From the NCBI GenBank assembly GCA_963697875.1, contig OY969099.1:986736-1050735 (forward strand): a DNA stretch of 64,000 nt, given 5' to 3'. Made by a program: the position numbers and the translations under genes. The stretch is from an uncultured Actinomycetes bacterium. Its GTDB lineage: Bacteria; Actinomycetota; UBA4738; HRBIN12. The notes under the pieces are model-generated. The model was not told the origin of the DNA. It made no database searches and saw nothing but the letters and a program-made list of their open reading frames with translations. Every line of letters starts with the position of its first letter. Positions within the stretch are counted from its first letter, which is position 1. Below, in pieces: positions 529 to 27,651 of this stretch.

Positions 529-601
529 TGGAGACGATCGGACTCGAACCGACGACCCCCTGCTTGCAAAGCAGGTGCTCTACCAACTGAGCTACGTCCC
601 C
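529..601 (-). tRNA. tRNA-Ala (anticodon TGC)
   Basis: The reverse complement folds as a canonical cloverleaf: GGGGACG acceptor with a G3:U70 pair, GCTCAGTTGGTAGAGC D-arm, anticodon loop TTTGCAA, TTCGAGTCC T-loop and discriminator A. CCA is not encoded. Confidence 0.9.
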
Positions 602-688
602 GTCGTGACCTGCGGAAACGCTCCCGTGGGTGGACGCACACCGTTCGTACAGCGCATAATCCATCCCGTGAAGACGACGGCGCAAGCC

Positions 689-1585
689 ATGGGAACGAGT
701 GTAGAGGAGCTAACCGCGTCCTTCATTCGCTCGCTGCGAGCCGAGAACAAATCGCCACGGACGATCGAGACCTACGGCGAGGCGTGCCGTGCCTTCGCGC
801 GGTTCTGCTCCAAGCGCGGGATGCCATCGGCCATCGATGCCGTCGCACGCGAACACGTGGAGGCTTTCATCGAGGATCTGCTCGCCCGGTGGAAGCCGGC
901 AACGGCGCAGAACCGCTACCGCGCCCTCGCCCGGTTCTTCGCGTTCACCGTCGAGGAGGGCGAGCTGCGCGAGTCGCCGATGCGGAACATGAAGCCGCCG
1001 CGGATCCCCGAGAACCCGCCCGCCGTCCTGGACGACGACGTGCTCCGGAACCTGCTCAAGGCGTGCGACGGCAACGATTTCGAGGATCGTCGCGACGCCG
1101 CCCTGATCCGGGTCTTCATCGACACAGGCGCGCGCCTGAGCGAGGTCGCCGGGTTGCGCGTCAGCGACGTCGGCCTCGACCAGCTCACGCTGCTGCTGAC
1201 CCAGACGAAGGGGCGCGCTCCCCGTCTCGTCGGCATCGGGAACCGAACCGCGAGGTCGCTCGACCGCTACTTGCGGATGCGCAGGACGCACCCCGAGGCA
1301 CACATCGACGCGCTCTGGCTCGGTCGTCGTGGTGCCGTCACACCGAGCGGTGTCCGCCAGATCACGCGGCGGCGCGCGGCCGACGCTGGCCTCGAGCACC
1401 TCCACCCTCACCAGTTCCGCCACACGTTCGCCCACGATTGGCTCGCGCACGGCGGCGCCGAGGGCGACTTGATGCGGCTCACCGGCTGGCGGTCGCGGGA
1501 GATGGTCTCGAGATACGCCGCGTCGACGGCGCAGGCTCGCGCCCTCGCCGCACACCGCCAACGTGCTCCCGGTGACAGGCTGTGA
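689..1585 (+). CDS. Tyrosine site-specific recombinase/integrase (XerC/XerD-like, 298 aa)
   Basis: N-terminal SAM-like core-binding domain. Catalytic residues present: ARLSEV (Arg), HQFRHTFA (His-x-x-Arg), [13 protein letters not shown] (His/Trp and Tyr nucleophile). ATG at 689 lies just past the tRNA-Ala 5' end, reading divergently from it. Confidence 0.85.
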
Positions 1586-2802
1586 AGACCACACCTTGGT
1601 ACGACATCCTCGTGCGGGGTCTACTGCGGCGGGCACCACCGGCGACCCCGACTCGCCGGTGAGGTCACCCGGACCGCGGAGGGGGTCGAGTTCCAGGTGA
1701 CCACCTGGGAGGGACCCCCGCGCCCCGTGCCGGGGGTCGACCTCGCGAAGGTTACGGGCGGGCATCGGACGACGAACCGATCGACGCGGAGCGAGCTGGT
1801 CCCCGATCAGGGCGAGGTTGTCGGGCTCTGTCCGGAGCATGGTCGCGTGCCGGTCAGCGTCGTAGAGCTCCGCCGACACGCCAATCTGGCACGGCGATCG
1901 GGGAAGACCCAGACGATGCCCTGCGGTCTCGGGCCGGATCCCCGCCTGGCGCTAGCGATCCGGTCGGGGCACACGCGGGGCCATTCCCGAATTTGGCACA
2001 TATCCAACTTTGTTCGCCCACCGGGGGGGCGGATGTCAAGCGCGGCCGGGAAGCACCAGCGGGCGCCAATCTTCGCTTCGAACGAAATCAAGTGCGAGGA
2101 GAACGGCTCCGATGCCAAAGCCGCCGCCACCAAGTGGGCTGTACCTCGTTCGCGAGGTGCTCCGCCTGAGCTCGTTCTTCCTCCACCTTGTGCTGCTCGT
2201 CCGCGGCTGCCTTGCTCATATCGGGGCGGATGCCTCCGCCAGGAGGAATACCGGACCAACCCATTGGTCGAACGTAATCGGATGCGAACCGGCGAGCAAT
2301 GCGGTCGGGTCAACCGCCAGGGGGACCATCAGAGTCTTGGGGTGCCCCCGGACGACTCGGCGGACTCTCGCGCACACAGCGGGTGGCGCGAGGCGGTGTG
2401 CACGCGATGTCTCTCGTATATGGCAATCCTCACCAAGGAGGGGCTGATGGCCTGCTCAGCATGCGAATCACCTGACCGCCGGAGCATCGAAGAGGCCATG
2501 CGCTCCCCTCCTACGGTCGCGCCACGCGAGCGTTCTCGAGGAGCGATCGGGCAATGACTGGCGGGTGGTCTCCCGCTACGGATCCGCACACATGCGGGCG
2601 TAGCCCTCGATGAGCTTGTTGCCAACGGGCGTCGGGTGGACGACTGCGTGTGCGTGAGATCGGGCCGCCGTTGGTGCTGCGGGTCGCGGCAGGCGTCTTT
2701 CTCGCCCTCCTGGCGCTCGTACTCGCGGTCGCGATCGTGCTGCTGGTCTTCTAGTACCTCCTAACACTCGCGCATCTGACTGCAGGATCCGTCCGGTCGG
2801 GG

Positions 2803-2909
2803 ACCAAGCCGGCTACGACTGGGCCGACATCATCGACGCGCTGACGATGCATCCGGCCGTGCGCCGCCGGGTCGTGCGGTTGCTCGGGGAGATACAGGCG
2901 AGTGACTGA
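2803..2909 (+). repeat. About 107-bp segment (an intact-looking gene 3' end encoding ...GYDWADIIDALTMHPAVRRRVVRLLGEIQASD*); copy 1 of a degenerate direct repeat
   Basis: About 80% identical to 3674-3786. Copy 2 carries single-base indels that break the frame. Confidence 0.5.
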
Positions 2910-3082
2910 ACAGCGACGCGCCGATCAAGCGCCGGCTGCAGGTCCTTGCCGTAGACGAACGACCGGCTCGTCGGGAAGTTGCGAGCCACCGCCTACCCGC
3001 GTTCAAGGGGTCTGCCGAGCCAACTCAGACACGGTTGGGATCGGGGAGGCCTGGATATTCCTGGCACGATGAGAGGTGAGAA

Positions 3083-3619
3083 ATGACTGGGCGAGTTCGG
3101 AAGCGGTTGGACAATGTGGCGTTCTGGGCTGTGGTGGCGCTGGTGGGCGGGCTGTTCGTTTGGGCCTATCTTCAAGACGCCGAGGCAGGCTCTTCTGCGA
3201 GCGCTCCCTACCCCAGCCGAAGCGAGTCTGTTTCCCAGACACCCGCGCTGGTCCCCACCCCCGGCTCCGCACTCGGTGGGCCCGACCACCCCCGGGTAGC
3301 TCCTTCCCCGAGCGTGACCTTTGTGCCTGCCCTGCTGCGCGAGATCTCGTCGGAGCAACCCTTACCAGCACTCCCGCAGTCGTCGACGAGTTCAAACTCA
3401 TCGAGTTCAAACTCATCGAGTTCGACACCGGTATTCATAACCCCTGGGTTGCCGAGTCCTGCTCCATCCCCCAGCCTGAGTCCTTCTCCTTCTTCTCCTT
3501 CTCCCAGCTCGTCACCGAGCCCGACAGAGTCTCCAAGTCCTTCCCCGAGTTCGACCCCGGGCCACCCAACTCCGCCGCCCTCGCACAGCCACAGCCCAAA
3601 GATGTCCGCCGCTACCTGA
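3083..3619 (+). CDS. Membrane-anchored Ser/Pro-rich low-complexity protein (178 aa)
   Basis: AGGTGA RBS 6 nt upstream of the ATG. N-terminal TM helix (FWAVVALVGGLFVWAYL) followed by SSNSSSSNSSSS and (SPSP)n tracts. Contains a tandem 15-bp DNA repeat. Confidence 0.5.
   Translation: MTGRVRKRLDNVAFWAVVALVGGLFVWAYLQDAEAGSSASAPYPSRSESVSQTPALVPTPGSALGGPDHPRVAPSPSVTFVPALLREISSEQPLPALPQSSTSSNSSSSNSSSSTPVFITPGLPSPAPSPSLSPSPSSPSPSSSPSPTESPSPSPSSTPGHPTPPPSHSHSPKMSAAT
3387..3425 (+). repeat. Tandem repeat of the 15-bp unit cgagttcaaactcat (about 2.6 copies) inside the Ser/Pro-rich ORF
   Basis: Direct reading: units at 3387-3401 and 3402-3416, then a partial third copy. Confidence 0.8.
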
Positions 3620-3673
3620 TCGCGGACCAGCCTGACCGAGACGCGATCTCCTCGCGGCTGATGCGCTACCGCG

Positions 3674-3786
3674 ACCAGGCCGGCTACGACTTGGGCCGAC
3701 ATCATTCGACGCGCTCACGCTGCATCCCGACGAGCGCCGGCGCGTCGTGCGGCTGCTCGGGGAGCTCGAGGCCGGGTCCCTGACTG
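3674..3786 (+). repeat. Degenerate copy 2 of the 2803-2909 repeat (frameshifted gene-fragment remnant)
   Basis: Aligned by eye: accaggccggctacgacttgggccgacatcattcgacgcgctcacgctgcatcc... against copy 1. Confidence 0.5.
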
Positions 3787-4030
3787 GCAGGGCGCCACCA
3801 AGCCGAACCGACACCGATACCAAGTACCGAAACGGGCGCCTTCTGGCTTCTTCCTTTATCGGGCGGATCAACGATCCATCTATTTCCGCAGGTCAAGACG
3901 GTACGGTGCAGATGCTTGCAATGTTTGAGCCAAACTGAAAGCTAAACCCGTTATACTTCAAAAGTCCTGGGTAGGAACTAACTATGAATCACACGGGTAG
4001 AATTTTAGCGAGTTGGGGAAGGGTTAAAAA

Positions 4031-5233
4031 GTGGACGTCGAACGGTTCAAGAACTCCCCGATAGGACGCCTCGTCCCGGTCAAGGTCACGGATCGGGGCA
4101 AGGACTTCGAACACTACGCCTACGTGGCGGATCCGCTTCCTTCAGAGATCCCGCTAACACCCTCGGCTCAGCGGCTGCACCAGGAGGCCCTGCTCTCCCT
4201 CGGGCGACTTGATGGTCTGGCTGGTCAATTGCCCGCACCGGGCAATCTCGCGAGGCCTGCGATCAGAGAAGAGGCCGTAAGCACGTCGGCTCTAGAAGGC
4301 ACGTACTCGACTCTGCCTCAGCTCTTCGAGGCCGAATTTCTCGAAGAAGACGAGATGGATCGCGGCCTACGCGAGGTCAGGAACTATGTGCAGGCGGCTG
4401 AACGCGGCCTCGCCGCCATCCGAGAAGAGGGTGCCTCCATCACGCTATGGCTCGTTCGCGGCCTCCATCAGATCTTGATGGATGGGCTCGGCGTGCATCC
4501 GTCCGACGTTGGCCAAATTCGGGACAGACAGAACTGGATAGGTCTTCGGCGTAGCTCGCCGATCACCGAGTCCCTGTTCGTGCCCGCCCCGAACGGGGAT
4601 GTCCTTCAGGATGGCCTAGAGAGCTGGGAGCGTTGGATCCACAACGAGGACATACCGCTGCTTGTTCGGGTTGCGGTGGGGCACTATCAGTTCGAGACCC
4701 TTCACCCGTTCATCGACGGGAACGGCAGGATGGGACGACTCGTCGCTCAGCTCCAACTGGTCGAGGGCGGCATCCTGCGGCATCCGATTCTCAATCTTTC
4801 GCCTTATCTCGAACCTCGAGGAGACGAATACAGAGAACACCTTCGAGAGCTCAGTGCGACAGGTGATTGGGATCCGTGGGTTACGTTCTTCTTGATCGCC
4901 CTTCGCGTACAGGCGGAAGTGGCGTCGAGGCGGACAGTTGCTCTTCTTCGCCTCCGAGACGAGTTTCTTGAGATTGCGAAGAATCAACGTATCCGGGGCG
5001 TCGGAGTCGAGATAGCAGGTGGCCTGATTGGCTATCCCGTCATCACCGCAACCTTCGCCGCGAACATATACGGCGTCACGTATCCTGCGGCCAACACAGC
5101 AATCGCGCGGCTTGAGGCCGCCGGCATTCTGCGTGAGGTGACCGGGAAGTCATATGGCCGACTCTTCATCGCGCCGCGGGTTCTTGACTTGATCGCGCCC
5201 GAGGTCCCGGTGCCGGAGGCTGGCATATCATGA
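4031..5233 (+). CDS. Fic family protein (Fic_N + Fido domain; putative AMPylase/adenylyltransferase)
   Basis: Canonical Fic motif HPFIDGNGRMGRL. N-terminal Fic_N-like region (YAYVADPLP...SALEGTYST). GTG start with a GGAAGGG RBS. Preceded by an unusually AT-rich stretch. Confidence 0.85.
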   Translation: MDVERFKNSPIGRLVPVKVTDRGKDFEHYAYVADPLPSEIPLTPSAQRLHQEALLSLGRLDGLAGQLPAPGNLARPAIREEAVSTSALEGTYSTLPQLFEAEFLEEDEMDRGLREVRNYVQAAERGLAAIREEGASITLWLVRGLHQILMDGLGVHPSDVGQIRDRQNWIGLRRSSPITESLFVPAPNGDVLQDGLESWERWIHNEDIPLLVRVAVGHYQFETLHPFIDGNGRMGRLVAQLQLVEGGILRHPILNLSPYLEPRGDEYREHLRELSATGDWDPWVTFFLIALRVQAEVASRRTVALLRLRDEFLEIAKNQRIRGVGVEIAGGLIGYPVITATFAANIYGVTYPAANTAIARLEAAGILREVTGKSYGRLFIAPRVLDLIAPEVPVPEAGIS

Positions 5234-5305
5234 GCACATAACTTCGTGAAGTTCGTTCGGCAATCACCATCGTCTTTGCAGGTCAGCACAGCGTCTAGGC
5301 CGGCG

Positions 5306-5346
5306 TGCTTGCAAAGCAGGTGCTCTACCAACTGAGCTACGTCCCC
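5306..5346 (-). repeat. 41-nt direct repeat identical to tRNA-Ala positions 1-41 (5' half through the anticodon stem); candidate att site
   Basis: Exact match of tgcttgcaaagcaggtgctctaccaactgagctacgtcccc to 561-601. The flanks are unrelated. Confidence 0.75.
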
Positions 5347-5385
5347 GCGTCGGGAGGGTTTCAACGCCTCCGTCGCTCGTCGAGT

Positions 5386-5859
5386 CTAGCGAGCATCTGA
5401 TGGAGGCGGGGTGAGATCCATCCGGAACATCACCATGTCCCGCGCGCGGATGCCGTTCTCGACCACGGGAAGCGGATACGTGTCGAAGTAGCCTTCGCGG
5501 ACCCCGTCGAACCGGAAGCCGGCCTTGCGGTAAAAGGCGATCGTGTCGAGGCTGCAGTCCGAGGTGCCGACGGTCAAGCGGGAGGCGCCGTCCCGCCTGC
5601 ACCGTTTCGCAAGAGCCTCGATGGCGGCCCGGCCGAGCCCTCGGCCGCGATGCTCCTCGGACACGGCGATGTTCCAGATCTCGACCTCGTCGCCTTCGCG
5701 GACGAGCACGGCGACGCCGACCATCCCCTCGCCATCGTGGATCTCGAGGAGCTCGCCGCGGTCCAGGTAGCCGCGCATGTGCTCTTGTGCGTCGTCGGCC
5801 TCGAGCAGGAGCGGGAGATGCCGCTCGCGGTCGAAGTGAGCAGGAACCAGAGATACCAT
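5386..5859 (-). CDS. GNAT family N-acetyltransferase
   Basis: GNAT motif A region (EEHRGRGLGRAAIEAL) and C-terminal AFYRKAGF motif. Confidence 0.8.
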   Translation of the reverse strand: MVSLVPAHFDRERHLPLLLEADDAQEHMRGYLDRGELLEIHDGEGMVGVAVLVREGDEVEIWNIAVSEEHRGRGLGRAAIEALAKRCRRDGASRLTVGTSDCSLDTIAFYRKAGFRFDGVREGYFDTYPLPVVENGIRARDMVMFRMDLTPPPSDAR

Positions 5860-5923: not shown

Positions 5924-8911
5924 TCAGCCCGCGGCGTCGAGCGCGAGCGCGATCACCTCAGCCAGATGCTTCGCCTTTCGATCGGTGTTCTGCTCGATCT
6001 GGGTCCGGCACGAGAAGCCATCGGTGATCAGGAGCGTGTCGTGCGCCGCATCGCGCACGGCGGGCAGCAGCACACGTTCGCCGGCGGCGATCGAGATGTC
6101 GTACTTCTCGCCTTCCTCGAAGCCGAACGAGCCCGCCAGTCCGCAGCACCCGGAGTCGAGGATCTCGTAATCGAGACCCAGCCGCTTGAGCACCTGTTCC
6201 TCCGCGTCGAGCCCCACGATGGACTTCTGGTGACAGTGCCCGTGGTAGACGGCCTTGCGTTCGAGCCGGGGCATCTCCCAATCGTCCGCGTATTCCTGCA
6301 GGAACTCCGACAGCATGTAGCTCTTCTGCGAGAGGCGCCGAGCGTTCATGTCGTCCGGGAACAGGTTGGGAAGCTCGTCGCGGAACGCCGCCAGACACGA
6401 CGCCTCCATCCCGACCATCGGGATGCCCTGCTCGATCGGGCGCGCCAGCGTTCGGAGTGTCTGGCGGAACAGCCGCTCAGCGGTGTCGAGCATCCCGTAG
6501 TCGTACAGCGGGCGGCCGCAGCAGAGGGGGCGGGGCGGCAGCACCACGCGGAATCCCGCTGCCTCCAAGACGCGCACGTGCGCCTTGCCGATATCGGGAT
6601 GGAAGAAGTTCGTGAACGTGTCGGGCCACAGAAGCACCGGCGGACCGGTCCTCGACCGTTCGGCTCGGGACCCGAACCACTCGACGAACGTCTCGTGCGC
6701 GAACCGGGGCGCCGCCCGACGGGGATCGATCCCGCCCGCCCGCTTCGCCATCGTCGACAGGCCCGGCGCCTTCAGCACGAAGTTCGCCAACCGCGGGACC
6801 CACGACGCGATCCGCGCCCACCAGTAGATCAGGCCCATCGCGTAGGCGACGCGGGGGCGCACGCGTCCCCGGTAGTAGTGCGAGAGGAACTCGGCCTTGT
6901 AGGTCGCCATGTCGACGTTCACCGGGCAGTCGCTCTTGCATCCCTTGCACGACAAGCACAGGTCCAGGGCGTCGTGCACCTCGTCGGAGCGCCACAGATC
7001 GATATCGGGGTTGGTCCCGCGCATCATCTCGAACAGGATCCGGGCACGCCCGCGCGTGGAGTGCTCTTCCTCGTGCGTGACCATGTAGGAGGGGCACATC
7101 GTCCCTCCCGAGTCGTGGCGGCACTTCCCGACGCCGACGCACCGCAGGGCGGCGTGGGCGAAGGATCCGTGGTCCTCCGGGTACGAGAAATGGGTCCGCA
7201 CGCGAGGCGGCGCGAAGTCCGTCCCCAGGCGCAGGTTGGAGTCCAGAGGATACGGGTCGATCAGCTTGCCCGGGTTCATCTTCCAGTCGGGGTCCCAGGT
7301 CGACTTGAACTCGCGGAACGCCGCGATGATCTCCGGCCCGTACATCTTCTCCAGCAGCTCGCCTCGCGACTGTCCGTCGCCGTGCTCGCCGGAGAGCGAC
7401 CCCCCGTACTCGAGGACGAGGTCGGACGCCTCGTCGATGAAGGAACGCCATTTCTTGATGCCGGCGGCGGTGTGCGGATCCCACGGGATACGCGTGTGCA
7501 CGCACCCTTGGCCGAAGTGCCCGTACAGCGCGCAGTTCTCGTAGTCGTAGCGCTCGAACAGGTCCCGGAGGTCCTTCAGGTAGCCGGGCAGGTTCTCGGG
7601 CGGGACCGCAGAGTCCTCCCATCCCTCGTACGTGTCCCGCTGATTCGGCACGTACGCGGTGGCGCCGAGCCCGGACTCACGCACCTCCCAGATCTTCTGC
7701 TCCGCCCGCTTGTCGTCGTAGAGCTTCTCGCCCACGTAGCCATCGGCGTCTCGCAAGTGCTTGAACAACCTATTCGCCTTCTCATCGGATTCGCCCTTGT
7801 CCTCACCTCCGAACTCGGCCATGAGCCAGCCGTTCCCCTTCGGCAGGAGCTCGAGCTCGTCCTCGTGGATCTGGAGGGCCTTGTTGTCGTCGATCAGCAC
7901 GCGGTCGAAGCCCTCGAGTGCGATCGGCTCGAACTCGCGCACCGCGGGGATCTGCGCCGCGGCCTTGTAGAGATCCTCGAACCCCACGATCACGAGCGAT
8001 CGTGCCGGCGGGCTGTCGACCAGATGCAGCGTCGCTTCGAGCACGGTCACACACGTGCTCTCGCTTCCGACGAGCGCGTACGCGAGGTCGAACCCGAGGT
8101 CGGGAAGCAGACCGTCGAGGTTGTAACCGGAGACGCGACGAGGAAACGTCGGGAAGCGCTCCTGGATCTGCACCGAGTACCGATCACGGATGTCGCGCAG
8201 CCGCCGGTAGACCTCGCCCCGCCGTCCGCCACCGGCGACGATCCGCGCCAGCTCGTCGCCGGGCGTCTTCCCCACTCGCATGCGCGTCCCGTCGTAGAGC
8301 AGGATCTCCATCTCCGCGACGTTGTGCGCCATCCGGGGCCCGGCTCCGTAGAACTCGGACATGATCGAGTAGTTGCCGCAGGCGTTGTTGCCGATCATGC
8401 CCCCGATCGTGCAGTGGTCGTGGGTCGAGGGAGTGGGGCCGAACGTCACGCGTGGCTCTGCGGACTCGCCGAGGTTCCGCAACGTGTCCAGGACCAGACC
8501 CGGCTGCACCCTGGCCAGCTTCGCCTCGCGATCCAGGTCGAGGATCTCGTTCAGATACTTGGACATGTCCATGACGACGGCGGTGTTGCAGCACTGACCG
8601 GCGAGGCTGGTGCCGCCCCCCCTGGACAGGATCGGGAGCTCGTGACGGCGGGCGGCGGCCACCGTCGCGACGACGTCGTCGATGGTCTTCGGGATGATCA
8701 CGCCCACCGGCAGCTGCCGGTAGTTCGATGAGTCCGTGGAATAGATCGCGCGGTCCCCAGGGTCGAACCGGACCTCACCCTGGATCTCATCACGCAGCTC
8801 CGCGGCGAGCGCTCGGCCGCGTTCCATCTCCTCCACGGTCGGGGCCATCTTTCCCAGTGCGGGGTCGGGACGGAGCGGAATGCGGCGCGTGGCCGGCTGC
8901 GGAGTGGTCAT
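5924..8911 (-). CDS. FAD-binding (PCMH-type) oxidoreductase fused to a C-terminal Fe-S/CCG cysteine-rich domain (glycolate oxidase GlcD-GlcF-like or D-lactate dehydrogenase-like, about 995 aa)
   Basis: GGGTSLAGQ FAD-binding motif. Large C-terminal domain with CxxCxxC...CP clusters. Start set at the internal ATG 8911 (MTTPQPATRR), which has a GAAGGAG RBS. The upstream Arg/Gly-rich frame is judged spurious. Confidence 0.8.
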   Translation of the reverse strand: MTTPQPATRRIPLRPDPALGKMAPTVEEMERGRALAAELRDEIQGEVRFDPGDRAIYSTDSSNYRQLPVGVIIPKTIDDVVATVAAARRHELPILSRGGGTSLAGQCCNTAVVMDMSKYLNEILDLDREAKLARVQPGLVLDTLRNLGESAEPRVTFGPTPSTHDHCTIGGMIGNNACGNYSIMSEFYGAGPRMAHNVAEMEILLYDGTRMRVGKTPGDELARIVAGGGRRGEVYRRLRDIRDRYSVQIQERFPTFPRRVSGYNLDGLLPDLGFDLAYALVGSESTCVTVLEATLHLVDSPPARSLVIVGFEDLYKAAAQIPAVREFEPIALEGFDRVLIDDNKALQIHEDELELLPKGNGWLMAEFGGEDKGESDEKANRLFKHLRDADGYVGEKLYDDKRAEQKIWEVRESGLGATAYVPNQRDTYEGWEDSAVPPENLPGYLKDLRDLFERYDYENCALYGHFGQGCVHTRIPWDPHTAAGIKKWRSFIDEASDLVLEYGGSLSGEHGDGQSRGELLEKMYGPEIIAAFREFKSTWDPDWKMNPGKLIDPYPLDSNLRLGTDFAPPRVRTHFSYPEDHGSFAHAALRCVGVGKCRHDSGGTMCPSYMVTHEEEHSTRGRARILFEMMRGTNPDIDLWRSDEVHDALDLCLSCKGCKSDCPVNVDMATYKAEFLSHYYRGRVRPRVAYAMGLIYWWARIASWVPRLANFVLKAPGLSTMAKRAGGIDPRRAAPRFAHETFVEWFGSRAERSRTGPPVLLWPDTFTNFFHPDIGKAHVRVLEAAGFRVVLPPRPLCCGRPLYDYGMLDTAERLFRQTLRTLARPIEQGIPMVGMEASCLAAFRDELPNLFPDDMNARRLSQKSYMLSEFLQEYADDWEMPRLERKAVYHGHCHQKSIVGLDAEEQVLKRLGLDYEILDSGCCGLAGSFGFEEGEKYDISIAAGERVLLPAVRDAAHDTLLITDGFSCRTQIEQNTDRKAKHLAEVIALALDAAG

Positions 8912-12917: not shown

Positions 12918-13514
12918 ATGCTGGGAAGCATCACCCCGCTCGGCGAGCGGGGACGCGGCTCCAGGTGGTGGCTCACCGTATCGGCGTACCTCGTCGGATC
13001 GGTCGTCGGGGGGTCGTTCGCCGGCGCCCTGGTGGGGCTCGCGGGTTCGATCGTCGTCGGCAGCCTCTCGATCGCGGTGCGCCTGACGATCCTGGTGGTC
13101 GGGCTCGTCGCCGGGCTGGCGCTCGAGCTCGGCGCCTTCGGGCTCCATCTCCCGACCGCGCGGCGGCAGGTCGACGACGAGTGGCGCACGCGCTACCGGG
13201 GATGGCTGTGGGGACTCGGGTTCGGACTGCAGCTCGGGGTGGGTGTCGTGACGATCGTGACGACGTCGACCGTCTACGCCGTCTGGCTGGCGTCGGCGCT
13301 CAGTGGGGGCATCCGGGCGGGGGCCCTGATCGGGACGGTGTTCGGGCTGGCTCGTGCGCTGCCCGTCCTCACCGTCGCCGGCGTGCACCGGCCCACGCAA
13401 CTGCTCCGGGTCGATGCGACGCTCGCGCGGTTCGCGGCGCCCGCGCGCAGGATCTCGTACGCGGCCGTGGGCGGTCTGGCCGCGCTAGGGGTCGTGGGGG
13501 TGGTTCGATGGTGA
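12918..13514 (+). CDS. Polytopic integral membrane protein (4-5 TM, Cys-free), unknown function
   Basis: GAGGAG RBS 5 nt upstream of the ATG. Gly/Ala/Val-rich TM segments. The stop overlaps the next start (ATGGTGA). Confidence 0.5.
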   Translation: MLGSITPLGERGRGSRWWLTVSAYLVGSVVGGSFAGALVGLAGSIVVGSLSIAVRLTILVVGLVAGLALELGAFGLHLPTARRQVDDEWRTRYRGWLWGLGFGLQLGVGVVTIVTTSTVYAVWLASALSGGIRAGALIGTVFGLARALPVLTVAGVHRPTQLLRVDATLARFAAPARRISYAAVGGLAALGVVGVVRW

Positions 13515-13960
13515 CCGTGCAGGGTCACGGTCTCGCCGTGCAGGTGGCGAACGGATGGGAGGCGCGGATGTGGCTGCCCGGTCTGCCACCGCCGGCGATC
13601 AACCGACCTGTGATCCGTCTGGCCAACTTCGCGCTGCCGTTCTCGCGCGACACGTACGCCGACGACGTCGCCCAGGCTCTCGAGGCCGGAGCGGTGGTGG
13701 CCTCCCTCGTCGAGTTCGAGCCCGCGCTGGCGGGCCGGGGCCTGTACTCGGCGGCCGGGGTGCCGGCCTTCGGCGAGTCCGACCTCGATCCCCGTGCCGT
13801 TCAGGTCCAAGGCCACGGCCGCGCGGGGATGCAGCGGTTCTTCTCCGTCGCCGGACGTCCGTTCAGCCTGTACGTCGTGGCCCGCCGTGGCCGCGGACTC
13901 GGGCGTGCCCTCGATGAGCTCGCCGCGATGATCCGATCCCTCACCGTGGAGGCGCCGTGA
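13508..13960 (+). CDS. Hypothetical soluble protein (151 aa)
   Basis: Coupled to its neighbours by overlapping start and stop codons. No motif recognised. Confidence 0.45.
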   Translation: MVTVQGHGLAVQVANGWEARMWLPGLPPPAINRPVIRLANFALPFSRDTYADDVAQALEAGAVVASLVEFEPALAGRGLYSAAGVPAFGESDLDPRAVQVQGHGRAGMQRFFSVAGRPFSLYVVARRGRGLGRALDELAAMIRSLTVEAP

Positions 13961-14556
13961 CGCTCCTGTGGATCGCGGTGGCCGTCCTGGGGGGCCTGGG
14001 GCTCTGGCTCGGGCTGGCTCTGGCGGGCGCCGTCCGCGAGCTCGTCGTGCTCCGCGCACGCGTCGACGCGCTCGAGGCCGGGGCCGGCGCGCCGGACCAC
14101 CTCGCGTCGGGACTCCCGCCGGGCGCGCCGGCCCCGGCGTGGGAGGCGATCGACGCCGACGGGTCGCCGGTCTCCTCCAGGATCTTCACCGGCCGCCGTC
14201 ACCTGCTCTTGTTCGCCGACGCCGACTGCGCGGCGTGCGACGACATCGTTCCGTTCGTGGTGCGCGCGTCCGCGGAGGGGTCGCTTCCGCCGGCGGCGGT
14301 GATCGCGGGCGAACCATTGGACCACGCACCCGCCACGTGGCGCCCGTCGGCGGGCCGAGGCACGGTCGTGGTCGGGGCGGAGCGCGGGCGCGACGTCTCC
14401 GCGCGCTACCACGTCGACATCACCCCGACGGTCTTCGTCGTGGACGAAGGCGGGTTCGTCGCAGCTCGAGGAGCGCCGACGTCGCCGGACGAGACGCGCG
14501 ACCTGGTCGCGAGCGCGGACGGGATCCGGATCGTCGCGGGAGCAGGCGATGGCTGA
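13957..14556 (+). CDS. Second membrane-anchored thioredoxin-fold protein (TlpA-like), CxxC = CAAC
   Basis: GTG overlapping the upstream stop. N-terminal TM (LLWIAVAVLGGLGLWLGLALAG). LLLFADADCAACDD motif. The ...ARYHVDITPTVFVVDEGG... stretch is typical of the redoxin fold. Confidence 0.6.
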   Translation: MTLLWIAVAVLGGLGLWLGLALAGAVRELVVLRARVDALEAGAGAPDHLASGLPPGAPAPAWEAIDADGSPVSSRIFTGRRHLLLFADADCAACDDIVPFVVRASAEGSLPPAAVIAGEPLDHAPATWRPSAGRGTVVVGAERGRDVSARYHVDITPTVFVVDEGGFVAARGAPTSPDETRDLVASADGIRIVAGAGDG

Positions 14557-14818
14557 TCCGATCACCCGGCGCGGCTTCCTGTCCCGCACGTCGGCGGCGG
14601 CCCTCGTCGGGTTCGCGGCGGTCGCCGGCGTCGGTGGTGAGCGCCGGGCGTCCGCGCACGTCCGGCCCGCGCCGTGCCGGGTGCGCTGCGAGCCGATCAG
14701 CCGGACGGGCTGCGCGTGCGGCGGCAACCTCTATCGCTGCTCGGGATGCGGAACCAGGTTCCACGCGTGCGTGCACCGCGGCCGGTTCGGCTGGTTCTGT
14801 CTCAGGCGCTCCTGCTGA
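14549..14818 (+). CDS. Small Tat-signal cysteine-rich protein (89 aa, 10 Cys in a 59-aa mature part)
   Basis: TRRGFLSRTSAAALVGFAAVAGVGG twin-arginine signal. Mature part CRVRCEP...CACGG...CSGCGTRFHACVHRGRFGWFCLRRSC. Its ATG overlaps the upstream gene. Confidence 0.55.
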   Translation: MADPITRRGFLSRTSAAALVGFAAVAGVGGERRASAHVRPAPCRVRCEPISRTGCACGGNLYRCSGCGTRFHACVHRGRFGWFCLRRSC

Positions 14819-14819
14819 G

Positions 14820-16124
14820 TCAGACCCCGGAGCGCATCCCCACGAGGTAGGCGGAGAAGCCGATCTGGTAGCGGTCGAACGCCACGCGCCGGACCCCGCC
14901 CGAGGTGACCGCCAGCGACGGCTCGTCGTTGATCCGGTACGGCAGGTTCGACGCGTCGGTGAGCCGCTGCGGGGCGGGCCACGTCCGCCCGTCGCTCGAC
15001 TCCGCGAAGACGACGTCGACGCGGGCTCCCGCCGGTGCCGCGCAGTCGTTGCTGAGACGCGCGTTGCGCCTGCACGCGGCCACGGCGAGTAGCAGGGCGG
15101 AGTTCCCGGAAGGCAGCACGGCCGGCCCGTACCCGTCGGTGTAGATGGTCCCTCCCGCCGTGAACCCCCACGTCGCGGCGACCGTTTCGTCCCCGAGTCG
15201 CCGGGTGTCGAGCACACGCACCCCGATGCCTCCCGGCGTCGCGTAGGCGAACGCAACCCTCGGGGTCGCGGCGTCCGCGGAGCCGCCCACGGCCGGGTAC
15301 CGCAGGTCCGGATGAGGACTGGCCGGCGTGAGCTCGACCGGGGTCGACGTCGCGCCGAGGTCCGTGGCGTCGGCGTCGGAGGTGAGCGCCACCTGCCTGC
15401 CCGCCGCATCGGCGATCCAGCCGATGCCCACGAGCGCGCCACTGGCCCCCACGTCGGGAAGGCCCGCGAACCCCGTGACCGTCGCGGCGCCCATCGTGGT
15501 GGTGCCGATGCTCCGCCGCACCCAGGTACGGCCGGCGTCGGCGCTTCGAGCCAACCTGATCGCTCCCGAGTTCGCGTCGGTCCACACGGCGTACAGGTGC
15601 CGGCCGCTGGCCGCCAGGCGCGGATAGTCGACGCGCCCCTTCGGGGGGGACAGGCGGATCGGCTTGCCCCAAGTGTCACCTTCGTTCCGGGTCACACGGA
15701 CCCAGAACGCGCGCGGCGCACGGGGTCGGAAGTGCACGTATCGCGTCTGCGTGACCCACCCGACCACCACGACGTTGCCGGATGCGGCGATCGCGGCGCG
15801 TTCGGCGTGACGGCCCTTCGGGCTGATGCGCCGGGGTTTCTTCCAGGCGACCGGCGTGCCCCCCTGCCGTCCCCGCTGGACGAACACGCCCATCCACGGC
15901 CCCCTGTTCGTGGCGCACTCCTCGCTGGGCGGCGGGCAGTCGCTCGCCCACACAGAGAAGATCCGGTGGGTCGAGACCGCGAGCCCCTCGCCCGGGTTCC
16001 AGGACCATCGCGCGCCCGCACGCTGCGCCGGGCCGAACGAGACGGCCGACGCCGGCGCGGACAGCAGCGCGATCGCCCCCGCGACCACGAGCGCCGCCGC
16101 GATGCGCGCCTGCCGACGCCTCAA
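14820..16124 (-). CDS. Secreted BNR/Asp-box repeat (sialidase-like beta-propeller) protein
   Basis: N-terminal signal peptide (AAALVVAGAIALLSAPASA). Multiple S-x-D-x-G-x-T-W Asp-boxes (NEGDTWGKP, SADAGRTW, SSDGRTWPAP). Confidence 0.65.
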   Translation of the reverse strand: MRRRQARIAAALVVAGAIALLSAPASAVSFGPAQRAGARWSWNPGEGLAVSTHRIFSVWASDCPPPSEECATNRGPWMGVFVQRGRQGGTPVAWKKPRRISPKGRHAERAAIAASGNVVVVGWVTQTRYVHFRPRAPRAFWVRVTRNEGDTWGKPIRLSPPKGRVDYPRLAASGRHLYAVWTDANSGAIRLARSADAGRTWVRRSIGTTTMGAATVTGFAGLPDVGASGALVGIGWIADAAGRQVALTSDADATDLGATSTPVELTPASPHPDLRYPAVGGSADAATPRVAFAYATPGGIGVRVLDTRRLGDETVAATWGFTAGGTIYTDGYGPAVLPSGNSALLLAVAACRRNARLSNDCAAPAGARVDVVFAESSDGRTWPAPQRLTDASNLPYRINDEPSLAVTSGGVRRVAFDRYQIGFSAYLVGMRSGV

Positions 16125-16681
16125 CGCATCGTCCAGGTGGGCTGCTTGTTCGGGTCGAGGAACTGCACGAAGGGCGACCCGTCGTTCGCCAGGCCGACGA
16201 CCACCCGCAGCTCGCCACTCGGATCGAGCAGGCGCAGCACGGGCGACCCGGCGGCCGCCAGACCGAGCCGCACGCGGACCTTCCCGGCGTCGTCGTAGAG
16301 CCCCAGCGTCGGGGAGCCTTGCTCGGCGAGCTTGTAGCGGTGGTGGAGCTCGCCGTCCTCGACCTCGATGCCCATCGTCGGCGACGCGTCGGAGCCCAGT
16401 CCGAACTTCGCGCGGATCCGCCCGTTCTTGTCGCCGAACGCGAGCGAGGCAGATCCGTCCGAGGAGAGCCCCAGCGTGGCCCGCACCTTCCCGTTGTCGT
16501 CGGCGATCGCGAGCCCGGCGGCTCCGTCGGACTGCACGCCGAACCTGGCTCGCACCGAACCGTCGTCGTCGAGCATGGAGAAGAAGGGCAGATCGTCGTG
16601 CGACAGACCGATCCGCAGCCGGACACGGCCCTGCTCGTCGACGACCTCGAACTCCTCGGCTCGGACGACGCGCTTCTTCAT
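16121..16681 (-). CDS. Repeat protein with six about 23-aa D-x-x-G-x-(V/I)R-x-x-(L/F)G(L/V)-x-x-DG-S repeats
   Basis: The internal periodic repeat is obvious in translation. The stop overlaps the BNR gene start. The start is uncertain: alternative in-frame ATGs at 16759 and 16849. Confidence 0.45.
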   Translation of the reverse strand: MKKRVVRAEEFEVVDEQGRVRLRIGLSHDDLPFFSMLDDDGSVRARFGVQSDGAAGLAIADDNGKVRATLGLSSDGSASLAFGDKNGRIRAKFGLGSDASPTMGIEVEDGELHHRYKLAEQGSPTLGLYDDAGKVRVRLGLAAAGSPVLRLLDPSGELRVVVGLANDGSPFVQFLDPNKQPTWTMR

Positions 16682-16886
16682 CGGGGACGGATGCGCTGCG
16701 CAGAAGGACTCCGCACCGCGCACGTCATCGTCCCGCACGCGCGGCGCCCGCTCAAGCATGGAGGGCGCACAAAGTGAGAAGTCGCCGGAACCCGAGGGCC
16801 CCAGCGACTTCTCGCCACGATTTCTACCCCGGCCGGCCGAAACGGTCAACCTGGGGACCGGATTTTGTCACTCTTTTCCCCCGGGA

Positions 16887-18674
16887 TCAGGGGATCCGCA
16901 CCAGCAGCCGGGTCCGTTGGCTGGTGGCGTCGCCTTCGGCGCCGAGCACCAACGATCGGATCGGATCGAGGTTGGGGCCGACCTGATCGTCGAACTGAGC
17001 CCTGCTCGTGGGGTCGAGCTGGGCGCGGACGGCCGCGACGATCCGGGCGACGTCGACGTACAGGACGGCATCCGAGCTGGGCATTCCCTCGATCGCGGCG
17101 CGATAGCCAGCGTCGTCGGCGAGCCCCGACCCACCGGCCGCGAGGTCGACCAGCCGTTCCAGGTGTGTGGGCGACGTCGCGACGACGGCAGCGTGACCCA
17201 CCACGGCGTAGGCGACCTGGACCGTCGCCCCCGAGGAGGCGTAGGTGATCTCGGTCCCGTGATGGGTCTCGGTCTTCCAGACGACGTCCTCGTGGCGCTC
17301 GCGCAGCTCGCCCTTGGGCGTCAGCCGGTAGGAGGTGGCCCCCAACGGGAGCGAGCCGAACAGCGAGTCGAGCGTCCCGTGGACCGCCCCCGGATCGTCG
17401 ATGCCCACCAGGACCGCTGCCGCCGGTTGCGTCGAGGCACCGTCTGGAGCCGCCTCGACGGCGACATCACCCGTCATGTGCGCGATCAGCCCGTCGGGCC
17501 CCGTGACGCCGGCCCGCTCCAGAGCGTCTGCCACACCGGGGTCGGCGGTCTCGAGCTGATCCAGCGAGGCCGATAGGGATCGATCGACGTGCTCGATGGC
17601 GAACGCGCCGTACGCATCGGCCGGCACCATCTCGAGGAGCGGGTTGGCGTGATCGGGCGCCGAGAGCGCGTCGCGCGACTCCGGGGTGAGCTTGGTGTCG
17701 TCGTACAGCGTGACCGAGTCCATCGCCAGCCCATCGGGCTCGGCCGAGATCGTCAGGGCGGCCGATCGGATCGCGGCGACGTCGCCCGTGAGCAGATCGG
17801 GAGCTCCCAGGGCGCCGGTCGCCCCGAGCGAGTCCTGCATCAGCCCCAGGATCGGCTGGACGTTCGCGTAGACCATCCCGAGCTTGCCGCTCGGCAGCTG
17901 GGCGAGGGTGTCGGCGAAGGTCGCGTCATCCCGGATCGCCTGATGCGAGCCCCGGGACGTGTCGATCACGCTCGCGACGACGTCCTCGGTGGTGCCGAGC
18001 ACAACGGTGCCGTCGAACTGCGCGAAGGCGGGAGCCGTGCTCCCGGCGTCCGTCGGCGACGTGATCGCGACGCCGTCGTGGTCCGCCGTGCGCCACGTGG
18101 TTCCGTCGGAGGACCTCTTGTCCTGGAGACGCCTGAGCGCGTCGCGCGCGCCGGCGTCATCGTCGCTGTCCGCCAGGACGCCGACCGCGGGGTCCTGCTC
18201 CTGACGCAGATCGACGAACACGGCGACCTCCACGCCGACCCACCCGACGTCGCGTTGGTCCAGCCCGAGGCTCTCGAGCGCGGCATCCAGCGCGTCGTCC
18301 ACCTGCCGGCTCAACCCTGCCGGATCGCTCAGACCGGGGAACCGTGAGGCCATCCGGAAGAGGTTGGCCTTCTGCCCCGCGGACGGGTCGAGGTAGGCGA
18401 CGGCAACGACGTCGGCGTCCGCAGGGATCTTGCCCAGCAGCTCCTCGCTGCTGCCGCGCATCCCGAGGAAGCCCGCCGCGGCGGTGCCACCGGCGACCAC
18501 GGCGACGGCGACGATGACGGCGACGATCGCCCGTCGCCTCCCGCGACGCGGTGGCGTTTCCGGTGTGCTGGCTGCGCTCGGCTCAACGGAGTCGAGGCTC
18601 CAGGAGTCTCCGGGCTGTCTGTCGGGTGGGGGCGGCGGGACGGAGGCGTCGCCGCCGGGGGGGTCGATCTGCAT
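16887..18674 (-). CDS. Membrane-anchored protein (Pro-rich cytoplasmic N-terminus, one TM, large extracytoplasmic domain; DUF3352-like architecture)
   Basis: GGAAGGA RBS. TM segment AIVAVIVAVAVVAGGTAAAGFL. No catalytic motif recognised. Confidence 0.55.
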   Translation of the reverse strand: MQIDPPGGDASVPPPPPDRQPGDSWSLDSVEPSAASTPETPPRRGRRRAIVAVIVAVAVVAGGTAAAGFLGMRGSSEELLGKIPADADVVAVAYLDPSAGQKANLFRMASRFPGLSDPAGLSRQVDDALDAALESLGLDQRDVGWVGVEVAVFVDLRQEQDPAVGVLADSDDDAGARDALRRLQDKRSSDGTTWRTADHDGVAITSPTDAGSTAPAFAQFDGTVVLGTTEDVVASVIDTSRGSHQAIRDDATFADTLAQLPSGKLGMVYANVQPILGLMQDSLGATGALGAPDLLTGDVAAIRSAALTISAEPDGLAMDSVTLYDDTKLTPESRDALSAPDHANPLLEMVPADAYGAFAIEHVDRSLSASLDQLETADPGVADALERAGVTGPDGLIAHMTGDVAVEAAPDGASTQPAAAVLVGIDDPGAVHGTLDSLFGSLPLGATSYRLTPKGELRERHEDVVWKTETHHGTEITYASSGATVQVAYAVVGHAAVVATSPTHLERLVDLAAGGSGLADDAGYRAAIEGMPSSDAVLYVDVARIVAAVRAQLDPTSRAQFDDQVGPNLDPIRSLVLGAEGDATSQRTRLLVRIP

Positions 18675-27293: not shown

Positions 27294-27576
27294 CGTAGAA
27301 GTCCCTTGTTCCTTGAATTCATCTTCTCACAACGACACGACGGGACGACCGCCAGCGTCGATCCGGCAACACTAGCGTGGACCTGCGCGCTACCGAGGCC
27401 TCTCGACACTCTGGAGCCAGCCATGCGGCACCTCCTGCCACTCCAGCCCGCGCGTGGCTCCTGCTACCCGCGTGCTACTCGCTGCGGCAGGTCGCTCCGT
27501 CCGGTGTCCCGGCGGGTGAGGCCGCCTGGCCTCCCTCCCCTGGTAGACGGCCCCGGCGGATTACCCAGTTGCTGAG

Positions 27577-27651
27577 TGGGCCTGGATGGACTTGAACCAT
27601 CGACCTCTTCCTTATCAGGGAAGCGCTCTAACCGAGCTGAGCTACAGGCCC
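27577..27651 (-). tRNA. tRNA-Ile (anticodon GAT)
   Basis: GGGCCTG acceptor, GCTCAGCTCGGTTAGAGC D-arm, anticodon loop CTGATAA, GGTTCAAGTCC T-loop, discriminator A. Confidence 0.9.

Follow-up and report, generated by a model that had tools for sequence, protein, structure and literature searches.

A probable small integrative element in a tRNA-Ala(UGC) gene of an uncultured actinobacterium, with an attP site that would carry the 5' half of the tRNA

Which half of a tRNA gene does an integrative element bring along in its attP site, and in what state is the gene left after integration? The question is raised by a locus near the beginning of a 64,000-nt stretch of DNA (hereafter the window) from contig OY969099.1 of an uncultured Actinomycetes bacterium, in which a tRNA-Ala(UGC) gene, a divergent tyrosine integrase gene and a second copy of the 5' half of the tRNA gene lie together. 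An earlier note, made from the letters of the window, had offered two readings: an integrated element with an atypical attB choice on the 5' side of the tRNA, or a truncated remnant of an older tRNA-Ala gene. Our analysis favors the former. Positions 603-5305, together with one copy of the repeat, very probably constitute a small integrative element in the tRNA-Ala(UGC) gene, placed there through site-specific recombination by its tyrosine integrase with an attP that carries the tRNA 5' half.

ARAGORN places the tRNA-Ala(UGC) gene at 527-601 on the minus strand, full-length and presumably functional, and positions 529-601, the span given in the earlier note, score 73.6 bits in the Rfam tRNA model over the full model (1-71), at a gathering score of 29. 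A repeat search of the window revealed that 561-602 and 5306-5347 are identical in 42 of 42 positions, with a start-to-start spacing of 4745 bp. The exactness of this copy had been recognized before, but its length had been given as 41 nt; the outcome named as damaging, a repeat shorter or imperfect on exact alignment, was not realized, the repeat being one base longer. Read on the tRNA strand, it comprises position -1 plus positions 1-41, i.e. the 5' strand of the acceptor stem, the D arm, the 5' strand of the anticodon stem, the entire anticodon loop and, on the 3' side of the anticodon stem, 3 nt more. The 41-mer within the tRNA gene occurs in two copies only in the window, with up to 3 mismatches tolerated, and in none of 100 shuffles. 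The integrase-proximal copy (561-602) is taken to hold the att core and the 5' half of the intact tRNA, and the distal copy (5306-5347) to be the displaced 5' fragment. The latter is on the same strand as the tRNA, matches it in 41 of 41 positions inside the gene (5306-5346), and is located upstream in the tRNA's own orientation; alone, it scores 21.5 bits in the Rfam tRNA model, under the threshold. Beyond it lie 5348-5385, which we regard as the original upstream DNA of the tRNA, and a chromosomal GNAT gene on the minus strand (5386-5859). No second tRNA-Ala gene was found by ARAGORN in the 64-kb window, and the sole other tRNA is a stand-alone tRNA-Ile(GAU) at 27576-27651.

The divergent gene at 689-1585 on the plus strand encodes a tyrosine integrase of 298 aa, with matches to Pfam Phage_integrase (PF00589, 7.7e-26) and SAM-like N-terminal domains. 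Its two-domain build (SAM-like core-binding domain and catalytic domain) is XerC/D-like, as had been proposed, and alignment to XerD (1a0p) and XerA (5hxy) demonstrates that the catalytic R-K-H-R-W-Y residues are all present, Trp replacing the second His. The best structure matches are also XerA 5hxy (2e-18) and XerD 1a0p (2.5e-17), and both the build and the best sequence and structure matches are thus common with the XerC/XerD/XerA chromosome-dimer resolvases. Unlike these resolvases, however, the gene (int) lies inside a repeat-bounded tRNA element, and its relatives are phage and island integrases. The protein matches the PHROG_1 integrase at 4.5e-46 and TIGR02224 at 1.7e-40, the latter corresponding to 139.2 bits, so that the XerC equivalog cut-off of 335.15 is not reached; the same holds for the XerD equivalog TIGR02225 (131.7 bits, cut-off 329.6), and the scores are far under every cut-off of the XerC, XerD, XerS and integron models. 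Judged by its sequence, the protein is an element integrase and not a chromosome-dimer resolvase.

To place the element among its relatives, we scanned one genome per species for related integrases. The scan yielded 24 loci (labeled here by L numbers) with int relatives at 42-75% identity, nearly all from metagenome-assembled genomes (MAGs) of Actinomycetota/Acidimicrobiia and Chloroflexota. In 19 of the 22 tRNA-bearing loci, the tRNA lies on the strand opposite to int, at a distance of 100-250 bp upstream, with its 5' end toward int; in the other three, the 3' end faces int. Where both ends could be mapped, the repeat carries the 5' half of the tRNA not only in the window (tRNA-Ala, -1 to 41, 4.7 kb) but also in L001 (Ala, -10 to 40, 7.6 kb), L002 (Arg, 0 to 39, 7.2 kb), L019 (Arg, -1 to 36, 5.8 kb), L024 (Arg, 1 to 36, 1.9 kb, with a decayed int) and L021 (Arg, about 9.1 kb), the repeat of the last starting in the anticodon loop and being cut by the end of the fetched DNA. 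The classical 3' half is found in L004 (Thr, 32 to 74, 7.0 kb) and L013 (Gly, 31 to 76, 4.6 kb). For 12 further relatives, the right end was not found within 8-kb flanks.

A second scan was carried out in IMG/VR with an alignment of 13 integrases as the query; the single integrase protein as the query retrieved no IMG/VR relative. It added L121, in which a 56-nt repeat of tRNA-Val (-14 to 41, copies 11 kb apart) carries the 5' half, and L120, a classical member at tRNA-Arg (29 to 74, copies 9.3 kb apart). In this IMG/VR sample the classical orientation prevails, with 5 loci versus L121 and the contigs L116/L117. Plasmid relatives of the integrase reach only about 30% identity. Among isolated phages, the nearest are Streptomyces phage Kromp (41%) and Mycobacterium phage Toto with similar mycobacteriophages (34%); Rfam detected no tRNA-like fragment near the int genes of these phages, and their polarity therefore cannot be read.

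In the comparison of the elements, pairs of them have no more than their two ends in common. The window and L001 align over the tRNA and int (527-1557, 74%) and again at the right end, where 5274-5347 matches L001 15465-15538 at 89% over 74 nt including the repeat, with nothing aligned between the two ends. Likewise, L002 and L019 align only at their two ends (89% and 92%), their cargo being unrelated and their flanks non-syntenic. The flanks of the relatives are non-syntenic with the window. The identity blocks of the 5' type end at positions 36-41 and those of the 3' type begin at 29-32; since the anticodon loop is the only segment common to both, strand exchange would take place inside this loop. 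In the anticodon-loop class of tRNA integration, the arms of the anticodon stem serve as the inverted core sites of such a crossover.

We then reconstructed attP for each mapped element by joining the far end, one repeat copy and the near end. In the window, the P arm is the right end of the element (5236-5305), with ACATAACTTCG at 5236-5246 and TTTGCAGGTCAGCAC at 5275-5289, 16 nt ahead of the repeat, and the P' arm is the spacer between int and the tRNA (603-688), which holds the inverted-repeat motif TGACCTGCGGAAA at 606-618. Homologues of the P arm form the right ends of L001 (89%), L002, L019 and L004, the last of classical polarity, and TGACCTGCGGAAA beside the tRNA 5' end is kept in L001, L002, L018 and L019. 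A common attP plan emerges, in which a TTT(CC)GCAGGTCAGCAC motif stands 16-20 nt ahead of the repeat (window 5275-5289), the inverse motif TGACCTGCGGAAA follows directly past the tRNA 5' end (window 606-618), and a second motif with ATAAC/ATAAT is present in each arm. Inverted GCAGGTCA-type motifs accordingly flank the block of the tRNA half on either side. The attP is conserved across independent elements with unrelated cargo, and L004 possesses the same arms as the 5'-type members. Because the arms are conserved among elements, L004 included, the 5305/5306 boundary is best regarded as a genuine element end and not as the edge of a stray pseudogene.

These features can be combined in the following course of events. 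The element would have entered the chromosomal tRNA-Ala(UGC) gene by a crossover in or beside the anticodon loop, using an attP located immediately upstream of int and composed of the P arm, the core with a copy of tRNA positions 41 to -1, and the P' arm; this attP would bear the 5' half of the tRNA, not the 3' half. Because of this, integration would have left a complete hybrid tRNA beside int, with positions 42-75 (527-560) from the chromosome and positions 1-41 (561-601) derived from the element at least to the crossover. The native 5' half, together with the DNA upstream of it, would have been moved 4.7 kb away, to its present place next to the GNAT gene. Excision by recombination of the two identical repeats would leave no scar. 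It would give a repaired attB made of 527-560, one repeat copy and the DNA from 5348 onward (...GACGACCCCC-TGCTTGCAAAGCAGG...GTCCCCG-CGTCGGGAGGG), and a circle with the attP junction ...GGCCGGCG-repeat-TCGTGACCTGCGGAAA.

A site that corresponds to such an attP is present in the IMG/VR contigs L116 and L117, which are 98.6% identical over their overlap and encode a related integrase at 56% identity. Upstream of their int, CTTGGGAAGCAGATGCTCTACCAACTGAGCTATTCCCGC is the reverse complement of tRNA-Gly(CCC) positions 1-39; no 3' half follows this 5' half, and ARAGORN finds no tRNA in these contigs. The site is bracketed by 17-nt direct repeats, GAACAG(C/T)ACATAATTG, and has phage structural genes around it. 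One flank carries portal and MuF-like genes; the opposite flank encodes the prohead protease, the major capsid protein and tail proteins. From this arrangement, we regard the site as the un-recombined attP of a 5'-polarity element, with the layout reconstructed for the window. It is also observed that int and attP (L116 6688-8075, also in L117) are situated inside the structural operon and not near an immunity region; this int-attP cassette may itself be a mobile insertion.

How does this arrangement relate to known systems? A passage in Krupovic et al. (2019; PMC6563490) calls the use of the 5'-distal part of a tRNA gene for recombination "considerably less frequent" than that of the 3'-distal part, and cites one report from bacteria (Zhao & Williams 2002) and several from archaea. 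The reverse-orientation elements in that passage share with the window the 5'-distal part in attP and a displaced 5' fragment upstream of the restored gene. The Islander algorithm, as its published description has it on this point (PMC4383910), accepts a 5' fragment upstream of the tRNA gene (tDNA). Judged by the Islander criteria, the window contains a full tDNA (527-601) and, at the opposite end, a cognate fragment oriented likewise (5306-5346), which is terminal and on the correct side (positions 1-41 plus -1, upstream of the tDNA), an internal PF00589 integrase of neither the Xer nor the integron kind, and a length of 4745 bp within the permitted 2-200 kb; an attP with the 5' part of the tRNA is indicated by the repeat in the window and seen directly in L116. 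The window element thus agrees with every testable Islander criterion and is a well-supported member of a rare but known kind. The polarity was fairly called unusual in the earlier note, yet, as far as these two sources go, the arrangement is already documented, having been described in 2002 and being handled by existing software.

An anticodon-loop sublocation class of tRNA-targeted islands and prophages was reportedly distinguished by Williams in 2002. The window resembles such classical anticodon-loop islands in having int beside attP, in an identity block that extends from the anticodon loop as far as one terminus of the tRNA, and in the restoration of the gene. L004, L013 and L120 have exactly the classical form. 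Unlike the classical islands, the window element carries the 5' half, and its int is divergent on the 5' side of the tRNA. Since the 5' half is carried, the element would also have to provide transcription signals.

This requirement directs attention to the spacer between the tRNA and int. A promoter scan of the spacer detected a promoter-like TGGACG-N18-CATAAT at 631-660 that faces int, the ATAAT motif of the near arm doubling as its -10 element; in L116, a near-perfect TTGACA-N18-CATAAT for int occupies the same place. The only consensus-like promoter of the spacer (603-688) faces int, although the restored tRNA-Ala is now cut off from its native upstream DNA. With this DNA 4.7 kb away, and with no minus-strand gene recognized in the element upstream of the tRNA, we infer from the geometry that the restored tRNA would now be transcribed from element DNA, in line with the promoter supply that the earlier note derived from its first reading.

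The interior of the element answers closely to the inventory in the earlier note, each item of which (degenerate repeats, a Ser/Pro-rich protein, a Fic protein and AT-rich patches) was found. Positions 1586-3082 contain no recognizable gene and appear as cargo of the int module, either decayed or orphan; none of the stretches of 75 aa or more between stops matched Pfam or PHROG, and no homology to the cargo of the relatives was found. An open reading frame (ORF) of 178 aa at 3083-3619 (plus) is rich in Ser and Pro with a hydrophobic N-terminal segment, and has no family match in Pfam, PHROG, NCBIfam or PADLOC. It is flanked by two copies of a degenerate gene fragment on the plus strand, the C-terminal end of an unknown ORF (2802-2908) and a second copy with indels (3673-3783), which are 84-91% identical over 2802-2899 and 3673-3772; the second copy ends about 100 nt ahead of the possible internal att relic described below. 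Downstream, an AT-rich spacer (3922-4030) precedes a gene for a Fic-domain protein of 400 aa (4031-5233, plus; Pfam Fic and Fic_N). The G+C content (GC) of the intervening DNA, proposed earlier as a check, is 0.643 for the element versus 0.690 for the window, and falls to 0.404 in 3922-4030 and 0.587 over 3922-5305. GC at third codon positions (GC3) is 0.68 in the Fic gene versus 0.83-0.85 in int and the flanking genes.

The Fic protein is SoFic-like. It carries the active-site motif HPFIDGNGRMGR and TSALEG, which resembles an inhibitory-helix motif, and it matches the PADLOC SoFic model PDLC03963 at 1.3e-85, with residues 30-388 on model positions 8-358 of 361. A full-length model match and an intact HxFx(D/E)GNGRxxR motif, the marks of SoFic membership, are thus both present, as in the SoFic single-gene anti-phage defense represented by PDLC03963. 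Unlike the SoFic equivalog family of NCBIfam, however, the protein scores 132 bits and does not reach the cut-off of 550. We therefore propose the gene only as candidate anti-phage defense cargo.

Several observations weigh against the reading of 603-5305 as an integrated element of this kind. No excised circle was found, and no empty site either, the latter because close relatives are absent from the collections searched. For the flanking genes (oxidoreductase, GNAT and APH), the nearest homologues are 67-84% identical, and none is beside a tRNA: the best orthologues of the FAD/Fe-S oxidoreductase in JGI metagenomes reach 69-71% identity, with a tRNA in 0 of the 28 best loci; the GNAT homologues, besides the window's own protein, reach at most 84%, with six contexts without a tRNA or synteny, while an exact look-up of the window's GNAT retrieved no record; and the APH homologues reach at most 70%, with two contexts without a tRNA. 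Most of the relatives are MAGs, in which misassembly at repeats is possible. A consensus scan of the 88-bp spacer gave no convincing promoter facing the tRNA, and manual inspection of 20 aligned upstream regions revealed conserved arm motifs and no convincing -35/-10 pair in that direction. Pfam, PHROGs, PADLOC, tblastn and tblastx recognized no recombination directionality factor (RDF) or Xis-like gene in the window element, nor any Xis-like or other function in 1586-4030. About 2.4 kb of the interior is without a recognizable gene, and for this reason the element may be a decaying relic.

Could the 42 nt at 5306-5347 be the remnant of an older tRNA-Ala gene, separately duplicated, truncated and unconnected with the integrase? 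In favor of such an origin, fragments of tRNA genes are common in prokaryotic genomes, and no empty site was obtained. The fragment, however, is identical in 42 of 42 positions, runs 1 nt past the gene, and stops inside the anticodon stem as in six relatives with a mapped distal repeat; its orientation and side are those expected for a displaced fragment; and the 32 nt adjoining it (5274-5305) are the conserved element end common to L001, L002, L019 and L004. Identity and conserved end together make this origin very unlikely, and the second reading of the earlier note is accordingly disfavored. A chimeric join at the repeated tRNA sequence of a metagenome-assembled contig would be another way to produce the arrangement, since short-read assembly could go astray at a repeat of 42 nt, and MAGs make up most of the relatives. 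Independent assemblies from different studies nevertheless show this architecture again, at different tRNAs and with conserved arms on either side of the repeat, and the identical GNAT protein is recorded on a contig of 3.13 Mb, which renders an assembly artefact hardly credible. An integrated element with an atypical attB on the 5' side is, by comparison, supported by the end shared with L001, the recurrence in L002, L019, L024, L021 and L121, and the attP of L116.

Granted that integration is real, the element may still have become an immobile, decaying relic, in which selection maintains no more than int, the tRNA and Fic. No recognizable Xis/RDF, replication, transfer or packaging gene is present, 1586-3082 has no family match, the interior contains duplicated degenerate gene fragments, and decay occurs elsewhere in the group, with internal stops in the int genes of L016, L019, L020 and L021 and a 1.9-kb remnant in L024. 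In the window, on the other hand, int is intact with its catalytic residues, the repeats are identical, and the conserved motifs are kept in both arms; some tyrosine integrases, moreover, excise without a dedicated RDF or with an RDF supplied in trans. We consider immobility possible, although we would sooner expect the opposite. A different history is suggested by a site inside the element. The 13-mer TTTCCGCAGGTCA beside the tRNA (606-618, minus) reappears at 3883-3895 on the plus strand, in the orientation of the far-end arm, and the repeat search extends the inverted match to 600-618 to 19 nt. At 17 nt past this arm motif stands TGCTTGCAA, the 9 nt with which the repeat begins, in the anticodon stem and loop. 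The window contains the pattern GCAGGTCA-N10-25-TGCTTGCAA no more than twice, at 3888-3921 and at the true right end (5278-5314), whereas 100 shuffles yielded no instance. The 4.7 kb might therefore be a fusion of an int module (603-3921) and a SoFic module (3922-5305), formerly independent at the same att site and now one unit with the outer sites, after a deletion ending in the middle repeat had removed the int and the P' arm that belonged to the SoFic module. The spacing and orientation of the arm motif and the 9-nt core start at 3883-3921 are as at the true right end, GC is 0.667 before the boundary, 0.587 after it and 0.404 in the first 109 nt after it, and the GC3 of Fic (0.68) contrasts with that of int (0.83). 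The similarity past the 9-mer is weak, however, and a remnant of a second int was not found. When 3871-3990 is aligned locally with the true right end by a generic score, z is ~7 versus shuffles, but the background of the whole window is not exceeded; for this reason it is the specific two-part pattern that carries the claim. Since the middle repeat has nearly vanished, whereas the outer two do not differ at all, a fusion must have preceded the last integration. We hold the chances of such a fusion to be evenly balanced. The junction at 3883-3921 (plus), at the boundary of the two modules, suggests the scar of an earlier att junction, in a manner that is suggestive rather than conclusive.

Whether the integrated element of the window is an isolated case or a member of a family with variable polarity was approached through the integrase phylogeny, as the earlier note had advised. 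A neighbor-joining tree of 18 integrases, without bootstrap support, places the classical L004/L006 (Thr) and L013 (Gly) on two separate branches amid the 5'-type members, so that polarity seems to have been switched at least twice in the clade. Such switching is plausible because the attP core is a quasi-palindromic anticodon stem-loop. Beyond the reverse-orientation cases in the cited passage of PMC6563490, the present comparison thus follows polarity across an integrase clade in MAGs of Actinomycetota and Chloroflexota, with classical members nested in it, and includes a phage attP. The family-level pattern, i.e. frequent 5' polarity in one clade, switches and a shared attP plan, may be new.

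Some further observations concern the tRNA sites of the relatives. L024 (7441-9371) is a miniature remnant of 1.9 kb with two tRNA-Arg 5'-half repeats (92% identical) and only a fragment of an int gene; it is an example of in-place decay of such elements. In L022 (309-356 and 7742-7789) and L010 (3387-3420 and 7742-7775), a classical 3'-fragment repeat lies on the far side of a tRNA whose 5' end faces int. Here, both halves of a single tRNA gene may be in use simultaneously; the side of the 3' fragment showed no related integrase. The tRNA-Arg(UCU) genes of L002 (5597-5670) and L019 (381-454) are identical in the 5' half, which lies in the repeat and would come from the element, and differ by a compensatory T-stem base pair in the host-derived 3' half. 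This pattern fits a hybrid origin, but weakly, as tRNA 5' halves are conserved anyway. A 104-kb viral contig with a distant int relative (41%), L124, contains at 13190-17125 a minus-strand array of 33 of the 34 tRNA genes in the fetched stretch.

The cargo of the clade is diverse. Defense genes recur, with SoFic-like genes in the window and in L004 (PADLOC SoFic, 3.7e-88) and a PD-Lambda-4-like gene in L002 (8905-12537, minus), whose 1211-aa product matches PADLOC PD-Lambda-4_A at 3.5e-43. L002 also encodes, at 7372-7635 (minus), an 88-aa MerR/HTH_17 protein that could be an excisionase. L120 (164-9475), with classical polarity, is 9.3 kb long and has terminase, portal and capsid genes; L121 (389-11438), with 5' polarity, is 11 kb long and has the small and large terminase genes. 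Because they are too small for a full tailed phage, L120 and L121 may be capsid-forming satellites or defective prophages. As the cargo of the window, L002, L004, L116, L120 and L121 spans these types, the same int-attP cassette appears to serve phages, small capsid-encoding elements and defense islets alike. The most general view of these data would be a clade of small XerC/D-like integrases in soil Actinomycetota, Chloroflexota and phages, whose attP is roughly symmetric on the anticodon loop and whose lineages repeatedly switch between the 3' and 5' half, with a 5' majority in genomes (19 of 22) and one cassette shared by phages, 9-11-kb capsid/terminase mini-elements and 2-8-kb defense islets. 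We put this view forward tentatively, as one that is slightly easier to doubt than to accept.

The value of the locus lies in a well-documented example and a family-level pattern; no new principle is involved. The usual rules of thumb for finding islands expect a displaced 3' fragment of the tRNA and an int downstream of it, and elements of 5' polarity are for this reason easily missed or mis-bounded, especially in MAGs. For the host, an element of 5' polarity would put a housekeeping tRNA under the transcription signals of mobile DNA, and would thereby tie the host tRNA supply to the element. The minimal int-attP cassette, in turn, would move single-gene defense cargo, such as the SoFic-like and PD-Lambda-4-like genes, among distant soil bacteria. 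If the view of the whole clade is true, this group of integrases would be a natural system for the evolution of att-site polarity, tRNA promoter supply and target switching.

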